Below are positions 4,378 to 54,927 of a stretch of 64,000 nt of DNA, piece after piece (position 1 is the first letter of the stretch; every line of letters starts with the position of its first letter). This stretch comes from Antedon mediterranea. Its lineage: Eukaryota; Animalia; Echinodermata. The translations under genes and the position numbers were made by a program. The notes below the pieces were generated by a model, which searched no databases, was not told where the DNA came from, and saw only the letters and a program-made list of their open reading frames with translations. The stretch spans positions 16,737,648 through 16,801,647 of the forward strand of contig NC_092673.1 in NCBI RefSeq assembly GCF_964355755.1, in the 5' to 3' direction.

Positions 4378-4800
4378 TCTGTTATATAAAATCTTTTATT
4401 TTCTATTGAATAGGCTGACATGCAAGACTGATTTAGGAAGTCAGGTGATGCACAGAACGCGGCAAAGAGGGTGTTGGCACTTTGCATTACAATAAACACC
4501 TTATAGGCTGGTAGCGGACAATCCCATTGCTGGACCAGTGAATGGAGGATTCTTTTCCAGACAAATGATGTAATTTTATGGTTAACATTATTTATGAATT
4601 CATTAGTGTGATGTGAGTTATATATTTTTTAAATTTCATTATAGTAATTTGACTTTTAAGCTAGTAGAGCTTGTTGTATGAAGGTTTAAACAGTCTGGTT
4701 TAAAGCTAGTCCGTAATAATACAACACAATGGTTCATACAACAAACAGTAGCCAAAACATATTTTGGTTTATAATCCAACAGATATGTTGTGTGAGAATA
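4378..4800 (+). promoter_or_regulatory. Third copy of the same block (no coding exon recognised directly downstream)
   Basis: Alignable by eye to 54696-54927 plus 57090-57290. Confidence 0.4.
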
Positions 4801-15724: not shown

Positions 15725-15945
15725 AAACACGATTTATATTTTCTATTTAATAGGCTGGTATGCAAGACTGATTGGGAAGTCATGTGACGCACAGAAGCAG
15801 TGACAATTATAAACACCTTATTATAGTCAAGTAGCGTCTGTTGATGTAGAGCTGTTAGTCAGACTGATTTACCAGTGGATGGAGGATTGTTTCCAGAGTA
15901 GGGTACCAACAATTCTGTTGTTCAGATTCAGTTGTAGTGTGAGTT
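15725..15945 (+). promoter_or_regulatory. Putative promoter / non-coding first exon of the ROCO gene
   Basis: Contains ATTGG (reverse CCAAT) and GGAAGTCATGTGAC (ETS core overlapping a CATGTG E-box), and ends at a gtgagt donor (~15939). An acceptor at 17747 precedes the ATG exon. The block is conserved in two paralogous copies. Confidence 0.45.
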
Positions 15946-17050
15946 TTTTATATTATTTTAACAGAATATTTAATTTAACTTTACAGAATTGTGCTTTGTT
16001 TTATGACAATTACAGGAATAGCAATACTTTGTTTGGAAATGTTGGTTCATGGCAACCCAGTTGCATCCATTGAAGTGTTTCTCAACTATTTTATTTTTAC
16101 AGCAAAAATTGCAATACAATAAAATTACAGATTTTAATTCGAAATTCAGAGGCTTAAAAGGTAATCTTGGTGAACACTACAAGGGTGATCACTATCTTTT
16201 GCTCAAATTCTGCCTATGTTATCACTTACCTTTCATTTCAGGCTTTTCATTTAATAGCACATAAATTGTTCAATAAACTTGTGTTAAAATGTTAATATCA
16301 AACGTACTAATGTCTGTTGTTGGAGAGTACAAAGGTCACAGAAGTTAGGCTGCTGAATATCTTGTAGTACTAAGTATATATTGAACGAAACATGTCTGAC
16401 ATGAAAATAAAAAAAGGTGTATTAGCCTGATAGTACAGTGATACGCCCGTATTCTTAAACCGGACTTTAGTCGTAGTTTGAACTTTGACTTTAAAAAGTG
16501 TTAGTTACTGTACAGTTACAGGCTCTAGACCCCTTGATTTCTATGCTACAATTTACCCAATAAATATAGGCATATTTTGAACTTTAAAGGTCACTTCTTT
16601 TTAAAATTGAAAAAATGGATTGACACAATTATTGCGCATCAGTTTTTTGCACACAGTATTTTATTTATGCATTATGAAAAATGGAAAAAGTGGCTACCCT
16701 AAATCTGATTAAAATTGCCTCAAAAGACGCTAGAACGCGTTGCTTCAAGGGGCTTCGCCATCTGGACCCCCACCGGGGGCCCTTGGCGGCCCCTCCCTGA
16801 CACCCAGCCTAGAGAGAGATTAACCAAATTATTAACCAAATAACTGATACGTTTTTCTGATACTCACAATTGCCTAGAGGGATGTTTTTGCCGTTTTTTT
16901 AGGGTGTAAAGTATAGCGGCCAAACTGAATGGGAGCCATTTGTTGTGTATTAATTAAAGAAAAGTCATAATTGCCGTTTGGGAAAATGAATCCACAAAAC
17001 AATGTTTCCAGTTGTTGATCTTTCAATCAATTATTATGAACAAAATAATA

Positions 17051-17826: not shown

Positions 17827-18227
17827 ATGGAAAGGTACGTTTTTAACAATTATTTCAAACAAAAATAACCAGCTCCAATATGTGTTGATATTATTGAAAT
17901 ATGTAACTATTAAAAACAAATTAAAATGTTTGAATAGTTATATTGACATACTTTATAATCAGAATTTATAGTTCAAACAAAAAGAAAACACTTTGATTTT
18001 AAGATATTCTTTTGAGAAAAATACTTCAAAATTCTTAAAAGATTATAAAATCCAAAATTATTTCTAATAATTTCCATCAATCATTCTCAATAAATACACG
18101 GGTATAAATGGATTATTTCTTACATTTTGACAGGAAACTTTTGGAAGAAGCTTGGTCAAGGAATGATTTGAAAACAATTAAACAAATCTGTAAGACGCAA
18201 CCAGGTCTTCTGAAATCTATCAATAAG
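17827..18227 (+). CDS. Start exon and ankyrin N-capping repeat (MERKLLEEAWSRNDLKTIKQICKTQPGLLKSINK)
   Basis: ATGGAAAG|gtacgt (17827-17834) joins cag|GAAACTT (18134). The exon ends AATAAG|gtataa in phase 0 like the repeat exons. The helix-turn-helix pattern KLLEEA..NDL..IKQI resembles ankyrin N-caps. Confidence 0.75.
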
Positions 18228-21200
18228 GTATAAAAACAGATATATTTTTATAATATTATCAAAGAAGAAATTCTTTTCATTAAAGTTTAAAATTATAGAG
18301 GATGTAATTTTATTTAATAGTTTAAAGCTTTTTTACTTAATGAATTACAATTCTTTTGCATTATCACACTGATGATGGAGGTATAACCTGCATATACTGA
18401 TTAACCACATTAGGCTAAAAATAATAATATAAATACACACTGATGATGGAGGTATAACCTGCATGTACTGATTAACCACATTAGGCTAAAAATAATAATA
18501 TAAATACACACTGATGATGGAGGTATAACCTGCATATACTGATTAACCACATTATACACACTGATGATGGAGGTATAAACCTGCATGTACTGATTAACCA
18601 CATTAGGCTAAAAATAATAATATAAATACACACTGATGATGGAGGTATAACCTGCATGTACTGATTAACCACATTAGGCTAAAAATAATAATATAAATAC
18701 ACACTGATGATAGGGGTATAACCTGCATGCACTGATTAACCACATTAGGCTAAAAATAATAATATAAATACACACTGATGGGTATGGCAAGCCTCAGCTG
18801 TCTGGAGTATTCGAAATATTATATTATTAATAATGTGGTAAACCATTCTATTTTGTTCTACTCATGTATTAATAATGATAATTATGATTATTTACCACAA
18901 TATTTAGCAGCAATTGTTGTTGTTTGTATTGACAAAAAACAAACAATTTCACATAATGTCTGTTGTCAGTATTTATAAACTTCATTATGATTCCTTTCCA
19001 GTTTGGTGACCCTCCATTACATTCATATCTGAGGGATCGTGGATATACTGCACCTACCTTAGAAATAGTGACTTGTCTCATTCAGCATGGGGCACCAGTA
19101 GCATTGCAAAATAAGGTAAATGTACAGGGATTTGCTAGTGTAGTAGGCTAACATTCTATAGATATGCTGTGGTAAACCATTCTATTTTGTTCTACTCATT
19201 TATTAATAATGATAATTATGATTATTTACCATAATATTTAGTAGCAATTGTTGTTGTTTGTATTGACAAAAAAAACAAACAATTTCACATAATGTCTGTT
19301 GTCAGTATTTATAAACTTTATTGTGATTCCTTTCCAGGATGGTGACACTCCATTACATTCATATCTGAGGGATCGTGTATATACTGCACCTACCTTAGAA
19401 ATAGTGACGTGTCTCATTCAGCATGGGGCACCAGTAGCATTGCAAAATAAGGTAATGTACAGGGATTTGCTAGTGTAATAGGCTAACATTCTATAGATAT
19501 GATGTGGTAAACCATCCTATTTTGTTCTACTCATTTATTAATAATGATAATTATGATTATTTACCACAATATTTAGTAGCAATTGTTGTTGTTTGTATTG
19601 AAAAAAAAAACAAACAATTTTACATAATGTCTGTTGTCAGTATTTATAAACTTTATTATGATTCCTTTCCAGTATGGTAACACTCCATCACATTCATATC
19701 TGAGGCATGGACACTCTACCTCAGAAATAGTGACGTGTCTCATTCAGCATGGGGCACCAGTAGCATTGCAAAATAAGGTAATGTACAGGGATTTGCTAGT
19801 GTAATAGGCTAACATTCTATAGATATGATGTGGTAAACCATTCTATTTTGTTCTACTCATTTATTAATAATGATAATTATGATTATTTACCACAATATTT
19901 AGTAGCAATTGTTGTTGTTTGTATTGAAAAAAAAAACAAACAATTTTACATAATGTTTGTTGTCAGTATTTATAAACTTTATTGTGATTCCTTTCCAGCG
20001 TGGTGACACTCTATTACATTTACATCTGTTGAGTGTATATACACCTACCTTAGAAATAGTGACTTGTCTCATTCAGCATGGGACACCAGTAGCATTGCAA
20101 AATAAGGTAAATGTGCAGGGATTTGCTAGTGTAATAGGCTAACATTCTATAGATATGCTGTGGTAAACCATTCTATTTTGTTCTACTCATTTATTAATAA
20201 TGATAATTTGATTATTTACCACAATATTTAGCAGCAATTGTTGTTGTTTGTATTGACCAAAAAAAACAAACAATTTCACATAATGTCTGTTGTCAGTATT
20301 TATAAACTTTATTATGATTCCTTTCCAGGATGGTAACACTCCATTACATTCATATCTGGGGAGTGTACATAAACCTACCTTAGAAATGGTGACTTGTCTC
20401 ATTCAGCATGGGGCACCATTAGCATTGCAAAATAAGGTAATGTACAGGGATTTGCTAGTGTAATAGGCTAACATTCTATAGATATGATGTGGTAAACCAT
20501 TCTATTTTGTTCTACTCATTTATTAATAATGATAATTATGATTATTTATCACAATATTTAGCAGCAATTGTTGTTGTTTGTATTGAAAAAAAAAACAAAC
20601 AATTTCACATAATGTCTGTTGTCAGTATTTATAAACTTCATTATGATTCCTTTCCAGCGTGGTGACACTCCATTACATTCATATATGAGGAATGGATATC
20701 CACTTACCTTAGAAATAGTGACGTGTCTCATTCAGCATGGGGCACCAGTAGCATTGCAAAATAAGGTAATGTACAGGGATTTGCTAGTGTAGTAGGCTAA
20801 CATTCTATAGATATGCTGTGGTAAACCATTCTATTTTGTTCTACTCATTTATTAATAATGATAATTATGATTATTTACCACAATATTTAGCAGCAATTGT
20901 TGTTGTTTGTATTGAAAAAAAAAACAACCAATTTCACATAATGTTTGTTGTCAGTATTTATAAACTCCATTATGATTCCTTTCCAGTATGGTGACACTCC
21001 ATTACATATTTATCTGAGGAATGAACTTACTAGACCTACCTTAGAAATAGTGACTTGTCTCATTCAGCATGGGATACCAGTAGCATTGCAAAATAAGGTA
21101 AATGTGCAGGGATTTGCTAGTGTAATAGGCTAACATTCTATAGATATGCTGTGGTAAACCATTCTATTTTGTTCTACTCATTTATTAATAATGATAATTA

Positions 21201-24200
21201 TGATTATTTACCACAATATTTAGTAGCAATTGTTGTTGTTTGTATTGAAAAAAAAACAAACAATTTTACATAATGTCTGTTGTCAGTATTTATAAACTTT
21301 ATTGTGATTCCTTTCCAGTATGGTTACACTCCATTACATTCATATCTGGGGAGTGGATTTAAACCTACCTTAGAAATAGTGACGTGTCTCATTCAGCATG
21401 GGGCACCAGTAGCATTGCAAAATAAGGTAAATGTACAAGGATTTGCTAGTGTAATAGGCTAACATTCTATAGATATGCTGTGGTAAACCATTCTATTTTG
21501 TTCTACTCATTTATTAATAATGATAATTATGATTATTTACCACAATATTTAGTAGCAATTGTTGTTGTTTGTATTAACAAAAAAACAAACAATTTCACAT
21601 AATGTCTGTTGTCAGTATTTATAAACTTTATTATGATTCCTTTCCAGAATGGTGACACTCTATTACATTCATATCTGTTGAATGTACGTACACCTACCTT
21701 AGAAATAGTGACTTGTCTCATTCAGCATGGGGCACCAGTAGCATTGCAAAATAAGGTAATGTACAGGGATTTGCTAGTGTAATAGGCTAACATTCTATAG
21801 ATATGCTGTGGTAAACCATTCTATTTTGTTCTACTCATTTATTAATAATGATAATTATGATTATTTACCACAATATTTAGCAGCAATTGTTGTTGTTTGT
21901 ATTAACAAAAAACAAACAATTTCACATAATGTCTGTTGTCAGTATTTATAAACTTCATTATGATTCCTTTCCAGGATGGTGACACTCCATTACATTCATA
22001 TCTGAGGAGAGGAGACCCTACCTTAGAAATAGTGACGTGTCTCATTGAGCATGGGACACCAGTAGCATTGCAAAATAAGGTAATGTACAGGGATTTGCTA
22101 GTGTAATAGGCTAACATTCTATAGATATGATGTGGTAAACCATTCTATTTTGTTCTACTCATTTATTAATAATGATAATTATGATTATTTACCACAATAT
22201 TTAGCAGCAATTGTTGTTGTTTGTATTAACAAAAAACAACAATTTCACATAATGTCTGTTGTCAGTATTTATAAACTTCATTATGATTCCTTTCCAGTTT
22301 GGTGACACTCCATTACATTCATATCTGAGGGGAGGAGACCCTACCTTAGAAATAGTGACGTGTCTCATTGAGCATGGGACACCAGTAGCATTGCAAAATA
22401 AGGTAATGTACAGGGATTTGCTAGTGTAATAGGCTAACATTGTATAGATATGCTGTGGTAAACCATTCTATTTTGTTCTACTCATTTATTAATAATGATA
22501 ATTATGATTATTTACCACAATATTTAGTAGCAATTGTTGTTGTTTGTATTGAAAAAAAACAAACAATTTCACATAATGTCTGTTGTCAGTATTTATAAAC
22601 TTTATTATGATTCCTTTCCAGTCTGGTGACACTCTATTACATTTATATCTGGGGAGTGGATATAGACCTACCTTAGAAATAGTGACTTGTCTCATTCAGC
22701 ATGGGACACCATTAGCATTGCAAAATAAGGTATTGTACAGGGATTTGCTAGTGTAATAGGCTAACATTCTATAGATATGCTGTGGTAAACCATTCTATTT
22801 TGTTCTACTCATTTATTAATAATGATAATTATGATTATTTACCACAATATTTAGTAGCAATTGTTGTTGTTTGTATTAACAAAAAACAAACAATTTTACA
22901 TAATGTCTGTTGTCAGTATTTATAAACTTTATTGTGATTCCTTTCCAGAATGGTAACACTCCATTACATTCATATCTGAGACATAGAGCACCTACCTTAG
23001 AAATAGTGACGTGTCTCATTCAGCAAGGGGAACCAGTAGCATTGCAAAATAAGGTAAATGCACAGGGATTTGCTAGTGTAATAGGCTAACATTCTATTCT
23101 ATTTTGTTCTGGTTTACCACATTATTTAGCAGTAATTTTTACTGTATTGTCTCATATTATGGCATATCTGCAGCATTGCAAAATAGGGTAATGTAGGCTT
23201 ACAAAGAATTGTCAGGACAATTTCACATTTTATTGTTATCAGTATTTATAAACTTCAACTTCAGTATCAATTAGCCTCCATATTAATCAATAGTATTACT
23301 ACCTCAAAGAGTAGTATTATTTAATCAGACTTACAGATATAGAATTCTCAAGTGTTTGATTTTTTTCACATTTTTCTCTTTTTACACAAAGCACATTCTA
23401 ACAAGTTTGTTTTGATTTAGATATTCATTTATAAGTCAACTATAATTGTAATGTGTTGTTGTTGTTTTAATATTTCATTTGTATCTGGATAGTATCCAAA
23501 TATTATTTTCTTTGAAAGTTTATAGTAAAACTATTTGTTGTTTTATATTATGGCTCAAACATTTTAACACATTTACCTACTGTTCCAAAGTAAACTTTTA
23601 TTCAATTTATCTCTCTCTCTCTCTCTCAATGTTGAAGGCGGTAGACTATAAACAGCAGCGCTTAAGTTTTGGTTTGGATACAGGAGTTATAGGTGGCGCA
23701 CTGTACAAGTTGATGTCATTTATTGGCAAATAGTAATTTCTATTCACGTCCTAATTTACAACCAATGTTAAAAAATAGTAAATCTACGTGTTATCACATG
23801 ATGCTCTTTCATCCAATCTCTAGATGGTAAATGTTTGAGCCATGACTGTATGTATGTGATGCGTATTAAAGTGTGTTATATTGTATATCAATAATTTCTC
23901 AAAAACTACTAAGTAACTACACCCATTTTTTAATAGGATGGAAATACACCTGTCTCTGTTTTAGAAAGTAACAGGTGGATAGGGTACCAGAGAAAAACTG
24001 AAATTTTAAACTTCTTTAAAAGTAAGTGAAGTTTTAATTATTAAAATTTTGGAATCAACTAGTTTTCATTACAAACGATAAAGATTTGATTTTTTGTCCC
24101 AAATGAAGAAGAATGTCCAGATAAAGAAAATTAACATTTATGATATCATTCACAGGTTCAGATGGCAATAGATTAAATAATCCACTGGGATTGTAGTAAA

Positions 24201-27200
24201 CATGGAAGTTGTGATATGTTGCAAGATGTAAAAACCTTATTTTTTATGATTTGAAAATTGCAAATAAATTAGAAAAATTATTTTGCCATTACGATAAAAA
24301 TACACAAAAATGCAAACTTTAAAATTCCTTTGAATTAACAATATTGAATAAATTTGGCCACACTTTTTTTTTATGGAACGTCATTTTTCACATCAAATCA
24401 ATCTCTTTATTCATCAATACATCAAAACAATTATACATAAACAAATTAAAGATTTGAAGATGAAAGGGACCTCAAAGAAACCCAAAGGGACTTGTGATAA
24501 AAGGACCACTATAAGCTAGTTACAAAAAAAACATACAAAAAATAAATTAATAAAATTAATAAAAATCCTGTATAGACAAATACACGGGATGCGCATTGTT
24601 AAGGAATATTTGAACTTTATTAATTGCATATAAATGTAAATGTAGAATATTTTTTTTTAAATGTAATCTATTATTATTTAAAATATGTATTCGCAATCGA
24701 GGCAAACAATTTACGATAGGAGGAGATAAATATTGAATTTAACAAGGCCATATAGATGTCTGCAGTCGCTTGCTCAAGTTAGTGTTTACCAACCGACCGA
24801 CATAGTGAGTTGTCGAGTGGCGTTGCACGTGACTAAAAATCTAATTTTCTTGTTAATCCCATTTTTTGTTTCCACAATGAATGAATTTTCTTCACATACT
24901 TTAAGCCAGCTTAAGAATTCTATTTCTCTGTATGTAAAATTAAGCATCATACATAATGTATTTTACCTTGGCTCCTACAATTGTATTATCTTGCAACTTC
25001 TTATGCAAATAGGCACAAAATAATAAGTAATATTTGAGCATAAACGCTTAAATAATTGTAAAAGTTGTTATAAATTAATGAGCTTTCAGTAGAGTACTTA
25101 CACACAGAATAATAGAATATTGCATTCATATTTTGTTTCTTTTTCTTCCCAACTTGTTGTTACTTTTTTCTGGAAGCCTAGTCTTAAAGTTTTATACTTA
25201 TAAGGTTTCCTTCCACACATACTATGTTTTATTAATTATTATCTTACATGTTTATATAATTATTATTATATGTATTTTTAATATGTGTGGAGAATATTTA
25301 TTTAATATTTATTGAATATTGCATTTAACGAATTGAATTGAATTGCAAATATTTATCCTTGGCTTGGTGTAGGCCTACTAAAAAAAGGTTGAGAATACAG
25401 AACCAAAACTGATAGTAATGTATGACAAAGTTAAACTTTTATAGTCTAAGGAACTTTCTTAGCCAATACATACAAGATTAAACCATTATAGGTAAGAGTT
25501 AAAAATCTATTTCAAAGACCCATTCCCTACAATTTTCGACGTTTTGTAAAAATAATGCAATATTACTTTAAAAACATTAAACCAGGTTATTCCTTGTCTT
25601 AGATGTACGTTTTATGGTAATTTATGATAAAATGAGAGAAAAAATGCACTACCTAAGTAGCTCGCAGTTTATTTATTATTATAAAGTTTATTAAAATCAT
25701 TAATAAACTTATATTATATATTTGATACTTTCTGATCGTACCAGACGTAGCCATAGCCAGTGGAACAAAGCAATGATTTTTAACCAATAACGAATAATAG
25801 AAATAAAGCAATCAATGTTTAAGGATAGTCTGCCTAATTCTGATCCGACAGCCACGCTGGGTGTGCTGTTTCCAATGCCTAAAATGAATCTTGAAAAACG
25901 TGTCTGTAAATGATCAATTGGTGATAAATTCGAAAAGCCCCATGTCTCACTCCCGTAAATTAAAATTTGTAAAACTTTGTCAAAAATGTGTTTCCATATA
26001 TTCTCTGGTAGGTATTGTGTTTTGCTATTAATTGATTGTAAATAGTATGTACGTTATTTGTTTTTTGACAATTGTGTTCAATTGTGTTATTCCACTGACC
26101 ATTTGAATTGAAAACCACTTCCAAGTAAGTATACGATTTAACAACTTCCATTTTAATGTTTATGTAATACCATTTTTCATATTTTCTTAATTTTTCATCT
26201 TTTTTAAATACCATTATTTTTATTTGTTTACATTTACACTAAGACCCTATGTGTCACAAAATATTTCCAATATAATTATTAAATGTTGTAAGCCTTTACT
26301 GTGTCTGCGAATAGTAATAAATCAGCAGCATTATTAGCAGATAGTTTATAAAGCAATCCCCGAATGGTATTTTTTCGTTATTTTGATTTAGCTAGTAATT
26401 CATAAATATATTAAATAGAGATGATGGCAGGGGTGACCCTTGTTGTATTCCAATTGAACATTCAAATAGGAGCGTTAATAAGTTTCCTATTTTTACATGT
26501 GCTAATAATTGGAAACTAAATAATAATATATATGACGTCATATATATTATTATTTACGCCTATTCTTCTTAATTTTAATAATAGAAAATTATGCTTTATA
26601 CTGTCAAGTGCACGTTTTAGATCAACGAAGCAACAAAATATTCTACCCCTTTTTTTACGTAGATATTTTTTAATTATCCTGTTAAGAATGAAAATATTAT
26701 CTAATGTGCGGAATCCCTTGCGAAAACTTGATTGTTCTTGTTAAATAATGTTATTGTTTTCAGTTAGTTATTCTAGTGTTAAGGATGTTTAAAAATATTT
26801 AAATTAATAACAGTAGTTGTTAACTGTATACATTGTAGTTAAAAATATACATTATTATTTATTATAGTATATTCAGAATGAATGATTGCTTGTACACAGT
26901 CACCCACAAGTGTTTGTAAGGCTTTGTATCACACAGAGCCTTTATATATAACCTTATACCATTGAAAAAAAAAGACTTTTAATATAGTGTTTTTTATGAA
27001 AATATATAATATGTAATATTTTTGTTTTGTGCATTTTTTTAGATTTACCAAGTACTACTGTTGAGCAATTTCAAACACAATTTCAGAAACAGACAAGTGA
27101 CGAACAGAAAACAAAACTTCTTAAGCCAGAGAGTGGTGAGTTTAAGAATAAGACCTGCTGTATGTTTTATGATTGTATCTATATATAATTTAACAGAATT

Positions 27201-30200
27201 GTGATTAAAATGGGATTTCAGTAAAGAGAGAATTAGATGCTAATGTTATTTAAAAAATCATTTCTGAGCGGTACTGTAAAAAGGCGAAAAAGTGTGCAAC
27301 TGATAACAAATAACAAATGGAGAGATTTTATTTATCATAAATAAAACAAACAGTTGATTGTTTCCATTTAAAATACTGTAATAATGGAATGAAGCTAGTT
27401 TGCAGATTTATGTGGCATGCTTGCTTGATTTTTGCTTGATTGTTGATTTTTAGGTTATATGCATTATCATGCGATCACGCGATGTACGCGCGATTTAACG
27501 AAATAACGTTTGTAATCATATCTTCACAAGCATGAATCACTTTTAAACAAAATTTGGTACTCATAAATTTCAGGTCGATGTGGTTATGTTTTCACAGTGC
27601 GCAATCAAACATTACGTGGTCTACGCGCGATTTAACGAAATCACGTTTGTAATCATATCTTCACAAGCATGAATCACTTTTAAACAAAATTTTAAAAATA
27701 ATATAGATCGTCAGAATGCTCGGGAACACGTATTTTTTATTTCATTTTCTTGAAGTGTACAGTATGTATAATATGTATGATTTGTTATGAAATTAAGAGA
27801 ACAAAAGTTGATAAAGTCATCATTAATTGCATTTTAAATTAAAAAAAATTTATTTCGACAATCAAAAAATTATGACATTTTCTTAGGCCGAAATAACAAA
27901 TTTCTTCTTTCAAAATAAAAGTTCATATATTAAAGTTAAAACTATATAGTTTGACAGTGCATCGTTTTTTAACATTTTTAAAGATGTCATCATAGTAAAA
28001 CATTATAATTCATTGCGGTATGTAATAATCTATCTGCGCCAAAGTGGTTACTGCATAGTAAATACATGGAGGAATCTTTCTACAACTTTTAGTCAGTTGT
28101 GTATAGCTCGGTGGTCTGTGCTCGTGTCTATGGCATTTAAGGTACCGAGATCGAGTCTCACATTGGGAAAGGAAATAAGATTTTTTTTTATTATCCATAT
28201 TGTTTGTTCAATTTTATTTTTTAGTGTATAGATTATACACATAATTTATAATGAAATCTATAAAATGTAAGTAATGTCTTTATTATTATGTAACAATGTG
28301 GTTTATGACATTATACGCAGAGGGATCTTTGATCGAATTGTGATACCAGCTATTGTATTCCCGTTAGCAAGATCCTATATATAAATAATTAAAGATTCTG
28401 AGAAAATCAATCAATCAATATATCTTTAAAAATCAATTATCTTTATTTAAATCAGTGATCTTTATTTAAATCAATGCATATAACCTATAATTCGTCATAG
28501 TGACTAATTAAATTCTAGTTTTTTTTAAACTTTATTTACTCCAGATGTTTAAAAAATCTATTAAAATCTTGATTCAATTTTCAGATATTGCTGCACGTGA
28601 ATTAGATTTTCAGAAAGCATACAATGAAGCCTTGAAAGATGGATCCGTCCCAGTCAATCTTGGAATGCTTAAGGTGATTGGACAAGAAGGAGTTGGTAAA
28701 ACATGCCTCATAAATGCATGTCTTGGAAAGATGTAAGTAGTTGGACAGTAAAATTGACATTACAAAATACATGTAGGTACTGCCTAATTATAACAATAAT
28801 AGATAATAGAATTAAATTTTAACATTGTTTTGTAATTTTAAATGAAAAATCATTTTAATTGTTGACTAAATAACTGATTTAAAATGTGTATTTTATAAAT
28901 AAAGACTATTGAAATAGTAACTATACTGGTATCTATAATTAAAAAGAGAAAATTGAATTTTACAGCACTAAAAATGAATGACATTCATTGTTGGTTTCAA
29001 ATTATTATATTATTATTATATGTATCTCAGATTTGAGGAAGAACATAAAGTTACAGATGGCATAGCAGTGATAAGGACTGTAAGCACAACATGGAAAGAG
29101 GCTAAAGCTGATAGTGGTAAACATGAATACAAATTAGCATATTACTCTTCCCATCATCATAGGCTATGTAACAATATTTATCTTTGATCTCATTATCATA
29201 GACACAAACAGGCCCACAATGAAACTGAGATGTAGAATGGAATTCAATAAATGCATACAACTGTAGTATGATACAGCAATTGTTACTCTATGATCCCTTA
29301 ACACACAAGCTATTGTTTGTTGATGTACTGTAATTGTAATTTTACTTTAAATAATCAATCAGTTAAAGTATTGTCACCTATTAATGTATCTGCTGAAATA
29401 ATACGTACAAATGTCTTTTTTCTGTACAGGTAATCCTTCAAAACAGTATACAAAAATCGTCACTGACAAACTGAGAGAAAAGAAACCCAAAGACGTATGT
29501 CAATAATAGTGTAATGAAAACATAAAATGAATAAAGTAGCACCTACAGGACTATTGCAAACCAGACACTTACGCCCATATTCTTAAACCGGACTTTAGTC
29601 GTAGTTCGAGCTAAAACTGAAAAAATGACGTCATATTAATTCATAAACCGAACTTCAACTAAATCACCGACTAAATCAGGCCAACCTCGACTAAATCAAG
29701 ACGGATTTTGATCGATTTTTTTTAGTCCTGGAGGGGGCAGGCTAAATGGTCGACTAAATGGTTTTTAAACGATGTTTATAAAAAACGTAACAGTCATTGA
29801 GTTGTTATATTGGCCAGATATTGAAGAATGAAATATCTATATTTATATTAGCTTAATTAAATATACATTGGTATAAGTTATAATAATGAAAATCATCTTT
29901 ATTTACAACTGTATACAAATTACATTATTTTCTTTGCGCAAGTCCGACTTGAACTATGTCACGCCATAGCGACAATGGGAGATGCGGCAATTCACCACGC
30001 GATGGAATGTTTAGGGGGCCTAGCGCTTTCTTGTCACGCTAGGAAGTGCGTGGTTCGTCGCGATCATACTTTGTTGGAGGCCTAGAAAATATGAAAGTTA
30101 CCGTACCGCCATGGTTCCTAAATATATTTTGAAGATTTTGTTTGTTGTTAATCAAAAGTACTTCACTGTTAAATTAATACTGATCTTGTTCTAATAATTA

Positions 30201-33200
30201 ACGATTAAAATTATTTTTCATGTATAGTCCTGATGCGTAAAAAGTTTTGTAAGAAAATGGAAAGTGATATCAATGCGCAAAATTTCGTCTGCTCCTCAAA
30301 TACTCTCTTGTCATTGGCCAATGTTTAGCCTTTGTTACCCAGACGTGTGCAACTCGACTAAAAGCTCGACTTCATTAAGTCGAACTGCAAACTTCGACTA
30401 CTTCGTTTTAGAATCGAATTTGAAGTAATAGCTCGAACTACGACTTTTTCAAGTCGAACTTCGAACTACGACTAAAGTCCGGTTTAAGAAACAGTATACA
30501 AAAATGGTCACTGACAAATTGAGAGAAAAGAAAACTATAAACGTAATGTCAATAATAATGTAATAAAAACATATAAAGTATTAGTACCTACAGGACTATT
30601 GCAAACCAGTCACTTAGGGTTTCTTTCTAAATGAATCAATGAGGCATTATGATTCTTTTTCGATCATTTTATAATCCAATTTACTTAAAAAATTAAAGTT
30701 GATTTTGCTTTTGAGAGTAAATAATATTAGTTTTCTCTTATATTAAATTGTAAACAATACTGTATTTTACTTTGAATAAACATTTGTTTCTTTTTTATAT
30801 CCATTTATTTTTTTTTTTTATGTGTCAGATTGACATGAAACCACCTATAGATGATGATGAGGATGGTATTGTTGTTAATGACAACAAAGGTGATTACAAA
30901 AATGAAGGTATGTAACTTTCCATTAAATTCTAATTATTATTACTAGATGGCACGCTCGCTTCGCTCGCGTACCATCTAGGTCGTGCCCACAGATGGTTCT
31001 CGAATACACAGTCATTTCAGCGTAACAAAACTGGCGATTTCAAATGTACGTACCGCAGGACTATAATACATTGTCATTTACAGAAACGAATAAATAGACA
31101 CGATGATTTATGTAGTCAGCTAAAATTAGCACCCTGGGAATTACTTCCGAAGGAGAAACTTATTACAAATGAGTCCAAATTTTTGATTTGGACTCATTTA
31201 AAGAAACCCAATTTGTGTTTTGTATGTAACATATTAGGGTTGAGGGATGGGAAAGCGGATAGGTACAAAGAAGAACAATTTTTAAATATATTCTTTATCC
31301 ACTCAGTAACGAAATATTTTGTTCATGTTTTATAGGCCTATAAATAATATACCTCTAAATACAGTAAAACATTTGCGATTTAATACTTGTTAAAACTGTC
31401 ACTGTCATAATCGATTGAAATATTAAAGTACATGTCACGATACACCACTACGACGTTTATATTATTGGTAATTATTAATTAATACAAACGTTGAGAAGGA
31501 ACTGTCAGTATAAAGTTTATTTGTATATAGTAATGTGTTTATATATCTAACAGTAGAGCCTATCCACAATCTCAGTAATAAAGTTTATTTGTTCATCATC
31601 ATCATCATATCATCACAGTACGAACATTCACAGTAAGAAATGTTCGATTCAAATGAGGACCGAAAATAGTTTATAGGTATTTACAGTACAGTATTGTCAA
31701 AGTATTGCAAGTTTATTCTCAAAGGGCCCATATATTTACCTACCGTATGTGTTAAACCAAGGACTCATCAATTTACCTACTTGTGTTAAACCAAACTTTG
31801 GCAGACTGAGAGATTGGGATGTTCCATTCATCGCAAATCAATACATTTGTATAATCGTATATTAAATATATCAAAATAGTATTTTTTTAAAGAAAATCGG
31901 CCTGTCTTCAACATTATGATGCTGTACTCTAGCTGTTCAACCGGTTTTCAGCTATTAAAAACAATTATCGTAGGAAGAGATAGGAAAATGCGAAGCCTCC
32001 TCGCATTTTTGTGGCGGGTATTTTTTCAAGACGGACATCCATTAGACAGTGTATACCACGATCTGAAAAACCCCTATTTGGGGCAAATCGTTGAACCTAA
32101 ATTTGTTTTAATCGTCAATAACTAATTATCTAACTTAATTTAATTAGTAAACAGGGTTACATCAGGTGGTTAAAATCAGTACCGAAAGTACGAACCAACT
32201 TTACATACCATCGAGTAAAAATTCTAGAAGTAAGGCGCGATTTACCGAATTTTGTCCTTACGTAAATTTATATATAGATTATATATTACATAGCCTATGT
32301 AAATACGCGAACGTGATTGGTTGAAACTGCATCACATGACTACCGCTGCGAGGATAGTAAATCGTATATATCCTCGAGAACGATGATATTGACTGAGTAA
32401 TTTTCCCGTAATTATCGTGTCCCCTGTCATTAATCATATAAATTATCGAGTACGATGATATTGACTGTGTAATTTTTGTGTGCAACATTCGCGTTTGCCG
32501 ATAAATAAACAAAAGTCATCTACTGGGTCTTGAACTCGCGATGAAATTGTCACTCCATCACAAGACAACGTTTCATGCGCTGCGCCACACGGAACTTGCT
32601 TGAAGAAATTACTCAACTAAACTATTTAAACTATGCATACATAGCGCCCTCATTTATTTTTAGTCCTCCCAAGAGGTGTTGAAACACCGTTTGTGATTGG
32701 TTAATACTCACAGTAGTATCGGGTACGCGCGCGACGCACTGAACATCTGGTGATGATTCGACTCGAAAGAAGACGAATTATTATTTATTCGGCCTACCTG
32801 ATAATATTATTATTATTAATGTAGGCTTATTGATGGAAATTCTTCTGTTATTATTTAAACGACCTAGGCTAGTGAATATGTTATTTTCAAGGAATCATTA
32901 ATTAGTAATTATCTGTATATTATTCTTCGAAAGGTAAGGTGTCTGGGCAGCTTGTTTACATACAATACAAAAAGGAGGCCTACCTAGCCTAGCTACCCGA
33001 CCCAGCAGATATTCTACTTATTGTAATATAACAGATATCGCCTTTTATATCGGTAAAATATAAGATTAGACATCCCCTCGGGAATGATATTAAGTTCTTG
33101 GGAATTATATATTCCCTCGAACATAATATCATTCCCTCAGGGATGTCTAATCTTATATTTAAGCTCTAAGCAGTCAATATCTGTATAATATTACATTTTT

Positions 33201-36200
33201 TGTAGTCAAAACACTAATTTGCAATTATCTGTTTGCAATTTCTGTCATATTAAGTTTGTGCTGTAGTTATTTGAAACAGATTATTAATTAGATTTTCCAA
33301 TTTAAAGTAACTTTTAATTTTTCTATAAAATTATTAAATTTATGTGATCAGAGTTGGAGGTAAAGCAACCTATCAAGTGTAACAATTATGGTGACATACT
33401 TTTCTACCTCTACTCTGACAACAATGATGACAACAATGATGACGACAATGATGACGACTCGGTGTAACAATGATTATGAAGACTGCAATGATGATAATGA
33501 CAACAATGATGACGACTCGGTGTAACAATGATTATGAAGACTGCAATGATGATAATGACAACAATGATGACGACTCGGTGTAACAATGATTATGAAGACT
33601 GCAATGATGATAATGACAATTACAACAATGATGATAATTAGAACAACTATAACAATATGTTAATGACTTTTACAATGATTAAAATAATGATGCTTGTTTA
33701 CATGTGTTGAGAGTGACCAAATTGTGTTTCCACTACAGATACTGATAGAGCTACTGAAGCTATTCCATTTGATACAGATCAGCAGTTAGATAAAGATGTA
33801 ATCAAGAAACTTGAGGAAAAAAAGGAGGACCCCTTGGAAGAAACATTTAACATCTGGGATCATGGAGGTCAATTAATATACCATGGTATACATCGCGTAA
33901 GTTATAATATATGTATTTGCCTTGAAGTTAATATTATATTGAAATTGTTTAAATACTTTGTACACAGCCAGTTAAAAGAAAATGTCTCTGTCTAACATAA
34001 TGGTATGACCAAGGTTTAATTTGTTCATTCAGTAATCGCAAAATTCTTTCCATGGTACTGCTTTATATAAATTGTTATTACAAATTTTGCCTACGTCAAC
34101 AAAAAAAGTATTTTCAGTAACTGTTTTCAATCATAACTTATTTTAACAGTGTTATATGAATTTGTACTAGAAAAATGCTTTAATAAAAAGATTATCAATA
34201 GTAAATGTATAAACACAGTTTATAAAAAGACAAATAAAATGATACTTATTTATTAAGCTTTAAAGCATATTAATCAAATATTTGAATAAAAACAAATTGT
34301 GTTTTTGCAGATGTTCATGACATTACAAGCACTTTATATTGTAGTGTTCGACCTAAGTGTAGACCTCAATGATCCTGCTGTTTATATTGATTCCAATGGA
34401 GTAAGTAGTTTGCTATATATTTTATGCATTACAAAGAGTTTTATTTCATACCTTCCAAATGAGCTGCATACATTTACATATTTGAAACCTAACCATTTTT
34501 TAAAAAATTTTTGGTTAGAAATCATTTACTTCTTCATTTCATTTTAGTTGAACAAAGATAAAATGTTTTTTAAACTTTTTTTTTTTTTTTTACAGGAAAA
34601 GTGTGAACATCATTGGACCAATCTCCAGTTCATATTATCTTACATCCTGTCAGTTTATTCTCATAGTCGTATTGTGAAAGAAGATGAGGAGAATGAAGTT
34701 AACAAACCAACTATCCTTATTGTGGGTACACATAAGGGTAAGCTTGGTAAGACTGAAAAAGAACAAAATGATGAGGTAATCTATTTCTATAGCTATCTTA
34801 AAAATTACCTAAAAGACATATTACTGCTCTAAAAATATGAAGATACTTTATTAACCAACTTTATATAGGTATATAATAATAACAAAATTTTAAATATTAT
34901 TTTAAATAAATATATATGTATATTACATTTTATAAACTTTTTGCAACCAGGCAAATATCATTTTTGAGAAGGTTCAAGATGTGCTTAGAGGAAAACTGTA
35001 TGAAGAACATATCTATCAATATTTTGCCATTGAAAACAGCCGAGAAACAACAGATAAAAGCTTTAGTGATCTCAAAGAGGTTATTGAAAAGTTTATGGCC
35101 ACTTTAGAAAAAGATGTTCCTTTAAAGTGGATGCGTTTTCGATGTGACCTTCAAGACCTCAGAAGGGAAAAACATTTTTCTTTGTGTCCTTTAGAAGAGG
35201 TAAACTTTATTTTGTAACCACATTAATAATCTTACTTTGAGCATTACAACTGAATTAATAGTTCCATGTTCTGCCACAGTGTATTAATCAGAGGAACTCT
35301 ACACCCAAATGTATAGAAAACTCGGATTTCAAAATCTGAGTTTACTAGTTTCATTCTGACCACTGAAATGGACCGATCCATTATTAATCGGAGGGATTAT
35401 AAAAATACATTATACCTTTTTATAAACATTTCATTGCAGTATTAATGTTATAAGTTAGGATTTGCAAAATTTTATTAATTTAATACATTCGTCTCAAAAG
35501 TACAACAATAAAATAGACATGAGAAACAAACATTGCCACATGGTAAGCTGCAATATTACTCTTTCATATTGAAAAATGGTATATAGTACTGATTAGATTT
35601 CTGTAAAGACAGTCTAATTTGAATGGATATAGAAACAATTTAGGAATGGAGACTTGCATGAGAAAACGGTTTAACATCTATAGTGCTTGCTTCTTCTATA
35701 TTATCTAAACTGAAATACCAAATAAATGTATATCTACCATGTTTTAAAAACTGAATATGATTTCTATTTTAATTATGTTTTTAAAATCTAATATTATAAC
35801 CATTATTTCTAGCTCAAAGTACTGGCAACTAAGAATGGTATTGAAAAAGGACAATCAATCCTTCTTAACTTCCTGTATGATCTTGGTGAAATTGTTTACA
35901 TGCCTGACAACAAATTATTAAGAGATAAAGCAGTGTTAGATCCGATGCAGCTGGTTGAAATTGTTACTGCTTTTGTAACAGTCATTCCACCAAAGTTTCC
36001 AGTAAGTACAGTAGGCCCATGTAATATTTCAAATTGTAAATATGTGTTTGTGGTGTCACTCCTATGCAAGTTCGGTGCAGTTCCTTATTCCATTATTTTT
36101 GATCATAGTACTTAAGAATTCTTTTTTTGGTATAGAAGCCTGCATTTAGGAGACTTGACAAGGGCATATTGGAAGAAAAGTTGTTGCGAAAATTATGGAA

Positions 36201-39200
36201 AGAGCGTAAAGTTGACGAAGGAAAGAATTTTGAGTTCCTTGTGGCACTGATGATTCAATTAGGTTTCATTTGTGAAAAGACGACGACCAGCAGCCAAGAT
36301 GTGGCAAGTACATCTACAGTAGGTTTTATTCAGTTATCTTTTTTAACATGTTATATTTTGTATGCAAGATTGTGTAAAAAATAATTTTTTTGGGATGATA
36401 CATACTTTTTAATTAATTAATTAAATTTTACATAAAATTTCAAAATATTTGTAGAGTTATGACATATTCTGGTTAAACTTTCTGCTGAAGATGTTTTTAA
36501 CATGTACAGGAAATGATTTTCGTTTTCTTATTAAAAGAAATTTAAATGGCATTTTACAAATCAACAATTTCAGGAATGTGTTGGAAAGCGATCATTCTTT
36601 GTGCCACTACGCCTTGCTTTCAAGACATCAAGTGAAGTGAAACCAGTGCCTGATGAATTTCCAGCTATCAGTATCTATTACGACTTTAAGGGATATCTGC
36701 CAGATTTATTGTTTCCATATATGATTATTGATTTCCTCAACAAATTTCAAAAGAAAGGCGATGACCCAATACTCTTGTATAATCATGCTGAACTTTACTT
36801 CAACCAAGATCATCATGTGACCTTATCTCTTGTCAAATTTCTGACTACAGACGAGGAGGATGAAAGAAAGTTCTTGTTAAAGGTACTGTATCATATAATT
36901 TCTTGTGATTAAGTCATTTTAATCTAAAAATAAACTTAAATTCAGATACCAAAACATTACTTTTCTTCTTTTTTCAGGTGACTATTAAAAGAACAAATGT
37001 TCCTAATGAAGCAAGTAATTTAGAACCCTCTTCTGAAGCATGTAAAGAAGTATGTTATTTCATATATCAGTTTTTAAAACTATATGATTTTTTATAGATA
37101 TTTTTGTTGATTTGTTTTTTTTTGTATTTATGACATAGTTTAAAATAACTTAAATATTTAAATTCATGTTTGTGTAGTTTACTTGACGTGTAATATAATT
37201 TGTAATTTTTATTGATATACATTATTAATTGAATATTAAATTGATTATTGACAATTGATTTATAAAAACATTACATCTTAAACAAATAAATGATATAATC
37301 TTAATATTATATAAATTTAAAATACAAACAACTTAAAGTACAGTTATCAAAGCTAGTTTATAAGTGATTTTCACTGAAATGAAATTTTTATATGGTCATG
37401 AATCTTGGCCTCAATGCCTGCAATTAAAACTTTATAAACAATAATGAGGTTTATTGTATGGTGACAAGATTTTGTTACATTTGTGACAAAATATGTAAAA
37501 TGTTGATAGTAGTGATAATTCACCTTATATTTGTATTTTAGGAATTTATTTCAATTATTATTGTTTTATTTTTTCCTTTATAACTATTTTGTATTGTAAA
37601 TGTTTAGTGAACATTTTAAAAATGTGTGCTACATTGTTTATGTGTTAATTGCATGTTTTTGGATATTTACCTTTATATCTTTAGGTTTTGTTAACGATCC
37701 AGAAGTCATTTGCACCTACTAAAGATGGTGGTAGAAGAGGGATTCAATATGAGAGATGCATACTTTGTGGTGTATGTAGTGATACATCAGAAAAGAAACA
37801 CATTCAAAATCTTGGTGATTTCCAGGACGAGAAGTTGCCATGCACCAAAACTGGCACGTATATGAGTATGGATGTTACACGTTACAAGCAGCTATTTGGA
37901 GGTAAGAATAAAAACAGAGACAGACAAGTTCGATTTTATTTCACTGATATATTTACTACTAGTACTACAACCATGTGTATTCGAATTTGGTGTAATGGTT
38001 ATGTAACCAGCCTTTCAGTTGACTAACAATAGAACAGCAACGCCAAAAACAAACGGGTGAATTTGAAAATAATCATCAACAAACTTGTACATTAAATCTA
38101 ATTATGTTTTAAAATTACAATTCACATATTATAACTGTTGCCTCTTGTACAAAAATGAAGTTTTTTGGACAAGTAGTTCTCGAGAAAATGCAATTTTAGT
38201 TTACTCAATACTTTAAGACTGTTCGCTGGCTTTTGAAAACACTAGCAGGTCTGAAAATAATTCTAAAAAGTGGTCCAGAATTGGGACCGTGGTCCGGATT
38301 GCCTCCAAAATTTAATGGAAAGATTTTGGGAAAGATCTTGTAATTACTTTTTGAGTAATCCTGCTAACAAACAAACAGACAGACAGACACACACGATTGA
38401 CTACATATACCTCCTTGGCGGAGGTAAATAATAAAATTTATGTAAACCGATAAAATGTGGGGAAAAACCTAAATATACTAGTACTAGTACTATGATAAGA
38501 GGAATTAATATATCACAGTTAACAGCAGCATTTCACCTAACTCATATTTCATCATATGGCAATACAATTACGTAATGCATATAGCGCTTAACATTTTCAA
38601 AATTGATTTTGGATGAAATTGGAGTACGTTTCAGGCAATTTTAAGCGTTTAAAAAATTGCCATTAGTGCGCAGATTTTTCACAAGCCTTTATTTTAATAA
38701 TTTCATCATATTTTATTCAACTCGAAATTGCGTAATACAAGCACCTCAAAAAGGACAGGCTAGGCACGTGTAAGTTAACAAAATGGTGCAAATATGCCAA
38801 GCTTTATAATTAATATAGGTCGTTTGAATGCTCGGGAACACCCATTTTGCATTTCATTTTCTTAAAGTGTATGTATCATATGTATGATTTATTATGAAAT
38901 TAAGTCATCACTATATTGCATATTAAATTTAAAAAAATTAATTTTGACAATCAAACAAATTATGACATTTTCTTGGGCCGAAATAACAAACTAAACATTA
39001 ACTTTCTTCCGTAAATATACTTTTAGTCAGTTGCATGGCTCGGTGGTCTGTGCTCGTGTCTATGACATTCAAGGTACCGAGATCGAGTTTCACCTTGGGG
39101 ACGAAACGAAATAAGACTTTTTTTATATCCGTATTGTTTGTTCAATTTTATTTCTTAGTGTATAGATTATACACATGATTTATAATGAAATCTAGATAAA

Positions 39201-54689: not shown

Positions 54690-54927
54690 TGTTCTCTGTT
54701 TATATAAAATCTTTTATTTTCCATTGAATAGGCTGACATGCAAGACTGATTTAGGAAGTCATGTGACACACAGAACACAGCACACTTTGCATAACAATAA
54801 ACACCTTGTAGGCGGTTAGCGTCCTTTGATGTAGAGCTGTACAATCCCATTGCTTACCAGGAGGAGATGGAGCGTTCGTTTTAGACATTCATAACCATGA
54901 TTGTGTAATTTAATTCATTAGTGTGAG
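54690..54927 (+). promoter_or_regulatory. Paralogous promoter/first-exon block upstream of the pseudokinase
   Basis: aataggctgacatgcaagactgatttaggaagtcatgtgacacacagaa...taaacacctt matches 15750-15830 and 4408-4505. Confidence 0.45.

Follow-up and report, generated by a model that had tools for sequence, protein, structure and literature searches.

Results

An array of ankyrin exons at the N-terminal end of a predicted ROCO gene

The window, i.e. the whole 64,000-nucleotide stretch of Antedon mediterranea DNA that was analysed, carries a tandem array for which the tandem-repeat search gave 13.0 copies with 93% matches (Table 1). In all 13 units, a common acceptor (..TTCCAG) and an AAG/GT donor enclose an exon that is stop-free, in phase 0/0 and encodes one ankyrin repeat, and all units lie on one strand. 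The 12 internal introns measure 218-222 nt and are about 97% identical. The exon lengths, given in array order in Table 1, fall into classes that are multiples of 3, and the intron indels are of 1 nt. The initial annotation of this DNA had described 13 one-exon, phase-0 ankyrin repeats in units of about 330 bp, stop-free and of 105, 108, 111 or 114 bp, and had listed residue 1, residue 3 and the segment after helix 1 for the 13 repeats; all of this agrees with our data. Its near-invariant introns stand as well, but the near-invariant 3' half of the exon does so only in part, position 28 being A, T, I or E.

Table 1. Position and strand of the array and of the exons of the gene model in the window.
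Feature	Position	Strand	Remarks
Predicted start-codon exon piece (Met-Glu-Arg)	17827..17834	+	Manual model; paralogues P0014 and P0015 likewise start MER
N-terminal capping repeat exon	18134..18227	+	AG/GT, in frame; 79% / 68% identity to P0014 / P0015 N-caps; helical cap in P0014 model
Tandem array, 13 intron+exon units	18834..23097	+	Period 329 bp
ANK exon 1	19002..19115	+	114 nt, phase 0/0; Pfam Ank 18.1 bits, under 21.1 cut-off
ANK exon 2	19338..19451	+	114 nt
ANK exon 3	19673..19777	+	105 nt
ANK exon 4	19999..20106	+	108 nt
ANK exon 5	20329..20436	+	108 nt; Pfam Ank 23.1 bits, over cut-off
ANK exon 6	20658..20765	+	108 nt
ANK exon 7	20987..21097	+	111 nt
ANK exon 8	21319..21426	+	108 nt
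ANK exon 9	21648..21755	+	108 nt
ANK exon 10	21975..22079	+	105 nt
ANK exon 11	22298..22402	+	105 nt
ANK exon 12	22622..22729	+	108 nt
ANK exon 13	22949..23053	+	105 nt
Relic of a further unit	23160..23195	+	Exon end and donor-like site (match at 23187), without acceptor
C-terminal capping repeat exon	23937..24021	+	In frame; 69% identity to P0016 C-cap
ANK-Roc linker exon	27043..27135	+	Same segment in P0016, P0009, P0012
Roc region overall	28585..35199	+	Pfam Roc 51.6 bits, cut-off 27, scored on P0001
Roc GTPase exons, first four	28585-28732, 29031-29116, 29430-29494, 30829-30907	+	Pfam Roc on P0001
Roc GTPase exons, last four	33739-33896, 34311-34400, 34596-34775, 34951-35199	+	Final one extends into COR
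COR and downstream exons (span 35813..37901)	35813-36001, 36136-36318, 36574-36882, 36978-37049, 37685-37901	+	Pfam COR-A 47.4 bits, cut-off 35.3
Acidic linker exon	41274..41330	+	Gene model
DED-like exon	43051..43593	+	One Pfam DED match, possibly tandem pair; 20.3 bits, E 7e-4, under 35.9 cut-off
Last coding exon with stop codon	43847..43872	+	Same end as P0001

Of the 65 exon-frames that the other five reading frames give in the array, 63 are interrupted by stops; the stop-free frame taken alone is weak coding evidence (P = 0.11). Two of the 13 exons, each scanned alone, were compared with Pfam Ank: exon 5 passed the cut-off and exon 1 failed, and paralogues P0013-P0016 passed. Neither orphan nor inverted repeat exons were found in the window, where tblastn with the ANK paralogues matched only the array and its caps. 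The window is also rich in tandem repeats, with 48 rows in the tandem-repeat listing.

The array reads in frame into a manual model of 33 exons and 1445 aa, stop-free and with AG/GT at every internal junction, whose domain order is N-cap, 13 ANK, C-cap, Roc, COR and DED-like tail. This host gene was absent from the initial annotation. Residues 590-1445 of the model are identical to the NCBI protein P0001 (856 aa) of the crinoid A. mediterranea, which begins just ahead of the Roc P-loop and omits the array. Roc is directly followed by COR, both score above their Pfam cut-offs, and the best PDB matches are Roco proteins. The P-loop and WDxGGQ motifs of Roc are present; G4 reads THKG and lacks the usual Asp, which is found in P0013 and in Anneissia homologues. 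The tail of the gene matches Pfam DED weakly and does not match Death; DED scores of paralogues P0011 and P0044 are 35.6 and 45.5 bits. In P0016, the C-cap sits after two ANK repeats and before Roc. No signal peptide or membrane segment was evident when the N-terminus of the model was read by eye. According to this model, the array is likely to be the N-terminal variable sensor end of a large GTPase and death-fold protein.

Paralogues of the array and its gene

The gene model of P0013, which lies on another contig, is N-cap-8 ANK-C-cap-Roc-COR-DED, that of P0016 is ANK-ANK-C-cap-linker-Roc, and those of P0014 and P0015 are N-cap-ANK; these domain joins are those of predicted gene models, and the exon structure of the paralogues is deduced from protein models only. 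The initial annotation had advised a search for paralogous arrays; the repeats of P0013 vary at the same positions as those of the array (Spearman 0.55, P = 0.002). Repeat identity is 83% within the window array, 79% within P0013 and 64% between the two, each array having its own fixed scaffold residues.

As many as 24 related A. mediterranea protein clusters name the same 36,192,472-bp longest contig; many of them are fragments, and 24 is therefore not a gene count. Pfam ankyrin matches occur in only 3 of these 24 models. P0009 and P0039 start with a segment matching window positions 25815-25904, and P0016 opens with an in-frame translation of the same intron end as in the window array, a sign that annotation breaks inside such arrays. 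The receptor-like context is firmer than was apparent at first, because the array is N-terminal in a ROCO model with a DED-like tail and lies inside a large paralogue cluster. When representative proteins were searched with P0016 as query, none of the 140 new proteins among the best 150 had at least two HxYL-type repeats, and 3 had a Roc-type motif. This is weak evidence that such repeats may be lineage-restricted, because long generic ankyrin proteins crowd the match list.

Amino-acid changes concentrate in the hairpin and helix 1

Mean pairwise diversity was 0.026 in the introns (217 gap-free sites, all 18 variable sites being biallelic), whereas the array exons gave 0.038 at synonymous and 0.103 at nonsynonymous sites (32 gap-free codons). 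The coding positions are thus more diverged than the adjacent introns, as had been claimed. At repeat positions 3, 5, 10, 13 and 14, which were chosen post hoc from the data, nonsynonymous diversity was 0.39. The minimum number of nonsynonymous changes was 31 in 72.6 sites, compared with 21 in 240.4 intron and synonymous sites (P = 2e-8); for positions 3-14, i.e. the hairpin and helix 1, it was 23 in 26.6 sites, a rate 9.9 times that of the same intron and synonymous sites (P = 2e-12). Changes at codon positions 1-2 and 3 numbered 29 and 3 (P = 0.002), and 8 and 0 in the loops of the six 108-nt exons; both splits speak against a simple mutational hot spot. The first repeat codon has four alleles at position 1, four at position 2 and an invariant third position. 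Codon maximum likelihood gave an omega of 3.7 overall and 12.5 in the 5' block (lnL -387.0 vs -396.1 with omega 1), and also 4.3 in the 3' half of the repeat; the method assumes one tree, an assumption violated by recombination, and we down-weighted these values because of recombination between units. Both approaches place dN above dS at the hairpin and helix-1 codons, the outcome that the receptor proposal had called for.

The nonsynonymous excess extends beyond the DARPin-type positions. Outside positions 3-14 the ratio was 3.0 (P = 0.002 relative to intron and synonymous sites together, P = 0.19 relative to the synonymous sites of the exons alone), and the variable position 28 is off the binding face. 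Purifying selection was not clearly visible in the helix-2 half (ratio 2.0, P = 0.08).

The intron variants show signs of exchange between array units. The four-gamete test failed for 27 of the 45 pairs of gap-free informative intron sites, whereas clonal simulations gave means of 2-19% incompatible pairs (P = 0.002-0.012), and this lends support to the concerted evolution suggested earlier. No distance-dependent recombination signal was found: site pairs farther apart were not more often incompatible (P = 0.29), nor did the similarity of two introns follow their distance along the array.

Position of the variable sites on the ankyrin fold

The predicted fold of paralogue P0014 has a pLDDT of 93.5 and a TM of about 0.79 to DARPins. 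On this model, the array repeats are predicted to be ankyrin repeats forming a hairpin-helix-turn-helix stack; together with the Pfam match of exon 5, it supports the ankyrin identity first proposed. When mapped via P0014 (not the window product), the variable sites are located in the hairpin, in helix 1 and in the turn after it, and secondary structure and the ankyrin consensus suggest that they would form a contiguous binding surface. DARPins, which are engineered, likewise have an N-cap, self-compatible internal repeats on a constant scaffold and a C-cap, with variation on the concave face. In contrast, the array is natural, its binding is predicted, and its repeats are of 35-38 aa instead of 33, the turn between helices 1 and 2 holding the extra residues. 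DARPin libraries randomise positions 2 and 33 among others; both are invariant in this array, whose most variable element is an insertion of 2-5 residues in the helix 1-helix 2 turn. The DARPin likeness drawn in the initial annotation therefore holds for positions 3, 5, 13 and 14, which vary, and breaks down at positions 2 and 33 and at the turn.

Discussion

We consider it reasonably probable that the array is spliced and forms the variable sensor domain of a ROCO protein of this crinoid, with the order ANK-Roc-COR-DED-like, which would work as an intracellular non-self receptor. Instead of sensing pathogens directly, a coding and diversifying array could also be the target or decoy in a conflict, escaping or baiting a pathogen protein, or could serve allorecognition or gamete recognition. 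Positive selection signals conflict and does not give its direction, and fungal repeat receptors under the same evolutionary regime control allorecognition (PMC4986451). The variation is however focused on the canonical binding face and falls on the same sites in P0013, as expected for a binder, which makes this alternative somewhat unlikely; surface allorecognition in particular is disfavoured by the N-terminus of the model, in which neither a signal peptide nor a membrane segment could be seen by eye. If the array were instead a silent reservoir, or a set of recently inactivated exons, with transcripts beginning downstream (e.g. near 25815) and encoding an ANK-less Roc-COR-DED protein, one would understand why P0001 is without the array, why 21 of the 24 same-contig models have no ankyrin match and why P0009 and P0039 start where they do, and the weakness of the stop-free frame would be no surprise. 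We find this quite unlikely in view of the 13 intact splice-site pairs, the codon-position bias, the exon lengths in multiples of 3 as opposed to 1-nt intron indels, and the start codon, N-cap and C-cap that flank the array in frame; the intron-end start of P0016, too, speaks for broken annotation. The nine sequencing runs, from four studies, include none listed as RNA. Intron sequence is covered by run X5, which was presumed to be RNA, and the 15 joints listed (158 further) include no spliced exon-exon join; both results are uninformative on expression either way.

A recent and neutral amplification of the units, in which constraint is relaxed and the loop undergoes local slippage or hypermutation, with no adaptive diversification, would fit the repeat-rich window, the low synonymous and intron divergence and the helix-2 half, but it is incompatible with the 29 to 3 codon-position split, with the alleles of the first repeat codon and with the variable sites shared by P0013; this very unlikely reading is largely refuted. 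Tandem arrays are also error-prone, and none of the contig pieces listed spans the stretch. Yet a falsely expanded or mosaic repeat is hardly credible when the 13 exons are mutually distinct in a codon-structured fashion, the downstream exons match an independent annotation exactly, and the summed depth of the array unit, which is not a copy number, is many-fold above that of nearby intron bins in each of the four runs compared.

The precedents named in the initial annotation are described in the literature (PMC4986451, PMC3341825, PMC11378527). ROCO genes of the brown alga Ectocarpus have one LRR per exon (Zambounis et al. 2012, PMC3341825; Teng et al. 2024, PMC11378527). They share with the crinoid gene a Roc-COR core, N-terminal repeats that are each encoded by a symmetric exon of their own and are under diversifying selection, recombination within the gene, an expanded family and a function as immune receptors that is a proposal in both. 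They differ in using LRR in place of ankyrin and phase 2 in place of phase 0 (PMC11378527), and in having inverted and orphan repeat exons; the animal host, the DED-like tail and near-identical introns forming a satellite-like array are found here. Alternative splicing of repeat exons is an algal feature, whereas the crinoid array is known from genomic DNA alone.

Fungal NLRs with highly conserved ANK, TPR or WD repeats, such as Podospora HNWD and Pa_3_8560, include a published ankyrin case of concerted evolution with diversifying selection (Dyrka et al. 2014, PMC4986451; see also PMC13449251). There, as here, near-identical ankyrin repeats show positive selection on the inner helix and hairpin, and some ANK units have non-canonical lengths (33-36 aa). 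The mean pairwise identity of our repeats (29 aligned positions) stands beside fungal figures of 85% (PMC4986451) and Psim 0.7 (PMC13449251), obtained by T-REKS and thus a different measure. Unlike the crinoid protein, with its Roc-COR and N-terminal repeats, the fungal receptors have a NACHT/NB-ARC STAND NTPase, C-terminal repeats and an N-terminal effector; their accessible descriptions do not mention one exon per repeat with homogenised introns, and report polymorphism of repeat number among individuals, whereas the crinoid array is known from one assembly. NLR membership was rejected on domain content, the central domain being Roc-COR and not NACHT/NB-ARC.

No kinase exon was matched upstream of the array, the only kinase match being downstream at 58 kb. 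DAPK has a CaM-regulated kinase domain at its N-terminus and a death domain at its C-terminus, with the order ANK-Roc-COR-death. We rejected DAPK orthology on domain content, as the model starts with the N-cap, has no kinase and its tail is not Death. DAPK1 and other animal ROCOs (LRRK2, Trichoplax) do combine repeats, Roc-COR and a death-fold domain; the present gene model differs in that it lacks a kinase, ends in a DED-like tail where those have a death domain, belongs to a lineage-specific cluster and has repeats that are hypervariable and exon-modular. At least 17 ROCOs, with TPR, LRR, CARD or death domains, occur in Trichoplax (PMC4104024). Conflict systems of bacteria with the order LRR-AP-GTPase(Roc)-COR-effector (PMC8195603) also join fast-evolving N-terminal repeats to a GTPase-COR switch and a variable C-terminal effector, but they are prokaryotic, LRR-based and intron-less. 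Our literature search, mostly outside subscription papers, found no animal or crinoid ankyrin precedent; the numbers of conserved repeats in metazoans in supplementary table S2 of PMC4986451 may bear on this. The principle itself has precedents in brown-algal ROCOs and in the ankyrin repeats of fungal NLRs, and its animal ankyrin form appears to be the new part.

For the receptor that we favour, near-identical introns and almost invariant helix-2 halves would provide the homology for unequal crossing-over and gene conversion in the germ line. Such exchange would homogenise the scaffold and shuffle, gain or lose whole repeats, symmetric phase 0 preserving the frame, while selection would keep amino-acid variants at positions 3, 5, 10, 13 and 14 as well as in-frame changes of length in the turn between helices 1 and 2. 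By domain logic, a protein of microbial or viral origin, or one of altered self, would bind to the concave ANK face and thereby trip the nucleotide and dimer switch of Roc-COR; a DED adaptor or caspase-8-like partner would then be recruited by the DED-like module at the C-terminus for death or defence signalling. It is a bolder and unlikely idea that crinoids hold a natural DARPin library, clustered ANK-Roc-COR-DED receptors drawing combinatorial surfaces from interchangeable phase-0 ankyrin exons through germ-line exchange within and between loci and through exon skipping or somatic recombination in one animal, with the identical introns as the sites of exchange; if true, it would mean an anticipatory intracellular recognition repertoire in an invertebrate deuterostome.

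If spliced and polymorphic, the array would be an animal, ankyrin-based case of a design hitherto known from brown algae (one LRR or TPR per exon) and from fungi (conserved ANK/WD/TPR repeats). It would then favour a convergent origin of receptors that unite variable repeats, an NTPase switch and a death fold, and would suggest that ROCO proteins are a class of NLR-like sensors in echinoderms. There has been little work on crinoid immunity, and because the database model of the locus omits the array, annotation may systematically overlook sensors of this kind. With its near-identical introns, the array offers a simple system to measure how gene conversion and positive selection act at sites only a few bases apart. 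The evolved variable sites, among them the turn of variable length between helices 1 and 2, suggest that binders could also be designed with positions outside the standard DARPin set.

The tandem ankyrin array

The data give good support to diversifying selection on an exon-modular ankyrin array at the N-terminal end of a crinoid ROCO model that belongs to an expanded family. In all 13 units an identical acceptor and an AAG/GT donor flank one phase-0 exon of 105, 108, 111 or 114 nt that is free of stops. This agrees with the initial annotation, whose residue lists for the 13 units also match the sequence. The 12 internal introns measure 218–222 nt. When the five alternative frames were read, 63 of 65 exon-frames contained stops; the stop-free state of the array exons is by itself weak evidence (P = 0.11). 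A Pfam ankyrin scan of two single exons placed one above the cut-off and one slightly below it. The leftover of an extra unit, made only of an exon end and a donor-like site, suggests an earlier unit loss.

By profile and by predicted fold, the latter modelled on the paralogue P0014, the array is an ankyrin domain. The fold was predicted for P0014 with a 26-row alignment, in place of the array's own spliced product; it had a pLDDT of 93.5, the helices of its first internal repeat at 39–46 and 51–59, and a TM of about 0.79 with DARPins. In this register, repeat positions 3 and 5 would belong to the hairpin and 10, 13 and 14 to helix 1, with 2–5 extra residues predicted in the inter-helix turn. 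The ankyrin binding surface is the concave face made by the inner helices and hairpins (available text of PMC4986451 and PMC8229355).

Features of the window, in window positions
Feature	Position	Strand	Remark
Start codon	17827		hand-read gene model
N-cap exon	18134-18227	+	hand-read gene model
Tandem array	18834-23097		329-bp period, 13.0 copies
Unit leftover	23160-23195	+	
C-cap exon	23937-24021	+	hand-read gene model
17 exons after C-cap exon	stop at 43872		hand-read gene model
ATG-started segment	25815-25904	+	30 codons
Roc G4 motif	34596-34775	+	usual Asp missing
Fragments of interrupted reading frame	2200-3720	+	seen by eye
Short-segment copies	~4400-4600, 15750-15950, 54730-54920	+	three, diverged, seen by eye
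Interspersed element	11401-12323, 29568-30490		two copies (97%), ~920 bp, ends matching
Inverted-repeat element	47855-52033		632-nt arms at 99%, more arms inward
Protein kinase domain	58002-58802	+	267-codon open stretch

Selection on ankyrin codons

Mean pairwise diversity was lowest in introns (0.026), followed by exon synonymous sites (0.038) and nonsynonymous sites (0.103), the exon values being taken over 32 gap-free codons with the indel-bearing loop excluded. The greater divergence of coding than of intron positions reported initially was borne out. Changes were then counted as the minimum per site, independently of any tree. Nonsynonymous changes in the whole exon numbered 31 over 72.6 sites, compared with 21 over the 240.4 intron plus synonymous sites (ratio 4.9, P = 2e-8); with exon synonymous sites as the only reference, the excess had P = 0.02. 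The ratio was 9.9 for hairpin plus helix 1 (P = 2e-12) and 2.0 for helix 2 plus linker (P = 0.08). It reached 12.1 at positions 2, 3, 5, 13, 14 and 33, the six sites randomised in DARPin libraries, and was 3.0 at the other positions (P = 0.002), meaning that the excess is centred on the DARPin positions yet also extends beyond them. An excess of amino-acid change at predicted binding-face codons is established. A GY codon model gave an omega of 3.7 (lnL −387.0, compared with −396.1 at omega 1), and 12.5 and 4.3 for the 5' and 3' blocks. At hairpin and helix-1 codons dN was above dS; because recombination inflates omega, we placed the weight on the counts.

A local mutator behind the variable exon codons is unlikely, since changes fell on codon positions 1 and 2 rather than 3 (29 versus 3, P = 0.002). 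The first exon codon has four alleles at position 1 and four at position 2 with an invariant third base, and in the six 108-nt loops all 4 third positions are invariant whereas 6 of the 8 first and second positions vary.

Exchange between units

Gap-free informative sites in the introns form 45 pairs; 27 of them failed the four-gamete test, compared with 2–19% incompatible pairs on average in clonal simulations (P = 0.002–0.012). Within the array, incompatibility did not increase with distance (P = 0.29), and introns next to each other were no more similar than those far apart. Modular phase-0 exons, near-identical introns and inter-unit exchange are established.

Repeat identity was 83% within the array, 79% within P0013, a paralogue on a different contig, and 64% between the two. 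Four scaffold positions carry fixed differences, and the variable positions coincide (Spearman 0.55, P = 0.002). As judged from these alignments, the pattern fits homogenisation inside each array with parallel diversification; independent recent expansions of both arrays would give a similar one.

Gene model and family

The gene model codes for 1445 residues in 33 exons; every internal junction is AG/GT and there is no internal stop. A Roc-COR test on its sequence classes the gene as a ROCO. Residues 590–1445 are matched exactly by P0001, the NCBI model of the locus in the feather star Antedon mediterranea, with 100% identity over the DED-like exon. In Pfam, P0001 scores above the cut-offs for both Roc and COR-A, with a sub-threshold DED match. 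As it begins immediately ahead of the P-loop, the array is absent from the database model. The joins from caps and ANK to Roc that P0001 lacks appear to be provided by paralogue models: P0016 reads ANK-ANK-C-cap-linker-Roc, P0013 reads N-cap-8 ANK-C-cap-Roc-COR-DED, and P0014 and P0015 read N-cap plus ANK. The first five residues of P0016 are the in-frame translation of the array's intron end, which suggests a paralogous array sharing that junction and intron end, with gene annotation breaking off within arrays of this kind.

Two other identities were ruled out for the gene model: DAPK, as kinase and death domain are missing, and NLR, as NACHT or NB-ARC is missing. The ATG-started segment matches the N-terminus of the NCBI models P0009 and P0039 at 87% identity and is either an annotation artefact or an alternative first exon that would yield an ANK-less isoform. 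In the Antedon cluster and several other Antedon paralogues the G4 motif is THKG or THKA, and most Antedon paralogues lack the usual Asp, so nucleotide handling may differ there; the Asp is retained in P0013, P0017 and the Anneissia proteins.

Twenty-four related protein clusters, three with ankyrin hits, list one common longest contig (36,192,472 bp), and further related clusters lie on four other contigs. The crinoid Anneissia japonica also has ANK-Roc proteins (P0056, P0059), with more ordinary repeats. Both caps vary among paralogues at the end of helix 1 and the next turn; cap identity is 79%, 68% and 69%, versus 94–97% for the nearest Roc-COR. The proteins P0044, P0047, P0058 and P0012 carry other N-terminal modules (DED, kinase) on the same Roc-COR subfamily, and it appears common in Antedon mediterranea for domains to be swapped around a constant Roc-COR core.

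Proposed mechanism and competing readings

Units would be exchanged by unequal crossing-over and conversion, with the introns and the constant exon half serving as homology, and a changing intracellular ligand would select among the variants. Bound ligand would trip the Roc-COR switch, and the DED would recruit a death or defence adaptor. We consider this chain as a whole, from exchanging array to DED signalling, probable. That the same array acts as a decoy or serves allorecognition is unlikely. Diversification within one individual seems quite unlikely.

An unspliced reservoir, with which a database model starting downstream of the array would be compatible, is distinctly improbable; an in-frame route from the array to Roc-COR and the DED-like tail is established. 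Neutral amplification could account for near-identical introns, and faces the skew of the changes by codon position; we hold it to be very improbable. Extremely improbable is an artefact. In the sequencing runs, summed depth, which is not copy number and shows no more than the presence of multiple copies of the unit in the raw data, was 18,712 in the unit-holding bin versus 462–628 in four nearby intron bins for X1, and 544 versus 20–34 for X5. The corresponding values were 10,036 versus 374–918 for X6 (organism B) and 20.5 versus 0–1.2 for X9 (organism C). With 26 differences, one X9 contig spans 22838–23057 (intron end plus exon), showing that the unit is present in another organism.

Relation to known systems

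In the available text of the sources, the array works like the brown-algal ROCOs, in which one exon encodes one LRR under diversifying selection and shuffling (PMC3341825, PMC11378527), with somatic recombinants unreported according to the latter. It also works like fungal NLRs with conserved ANK repeats: their repeat number is polymorphic, and positive selection acts on five repeat positions, most of which lie on the concave face (PMC4986451, PMC13449251). From similarly partial text, Trichoplax has expanded animal ROCOs with repeats and death folds (PMC4104024), Aplysia has TIR-ROCO proteins (PMC9334734), and a role as conflict sensors has been proposed for bacterial LRR-GTPase-COR-effector systems (PMC8195603); PMC8683736 and PMC12314368 give general background only. 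The underlying principle has precedents; what appears new is the combination in an animal. Searches covering the main text of part of the literature listed no animal precedent for one ankyrin per exon.

Other features of the window

The kinase domain (Pfam PK_Tyr_Ser-Thr, 90 bits) belongs to a distinct gene downstream of the ROCO model and shares 26% identity with the N-terminal kinase of P0047 (kinase-Roc-COR-Death). The short-segment copies, upstream of the ROCO gene and the kinase gene, end in a GTGAG-like donor and may be promoters or non-coding first exons related to one another. One copy of the interspersed element lies inside a Roc intron. The inverted-repeat element, whose terminal arms are very long, sits inserted in a 60-bp tandem array. 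It resembles a TIR or foldback DNA transposon whose interior has decayed. The fragments of interrupted reading frame look like a decayed transposon-associated zinc-finger protein.
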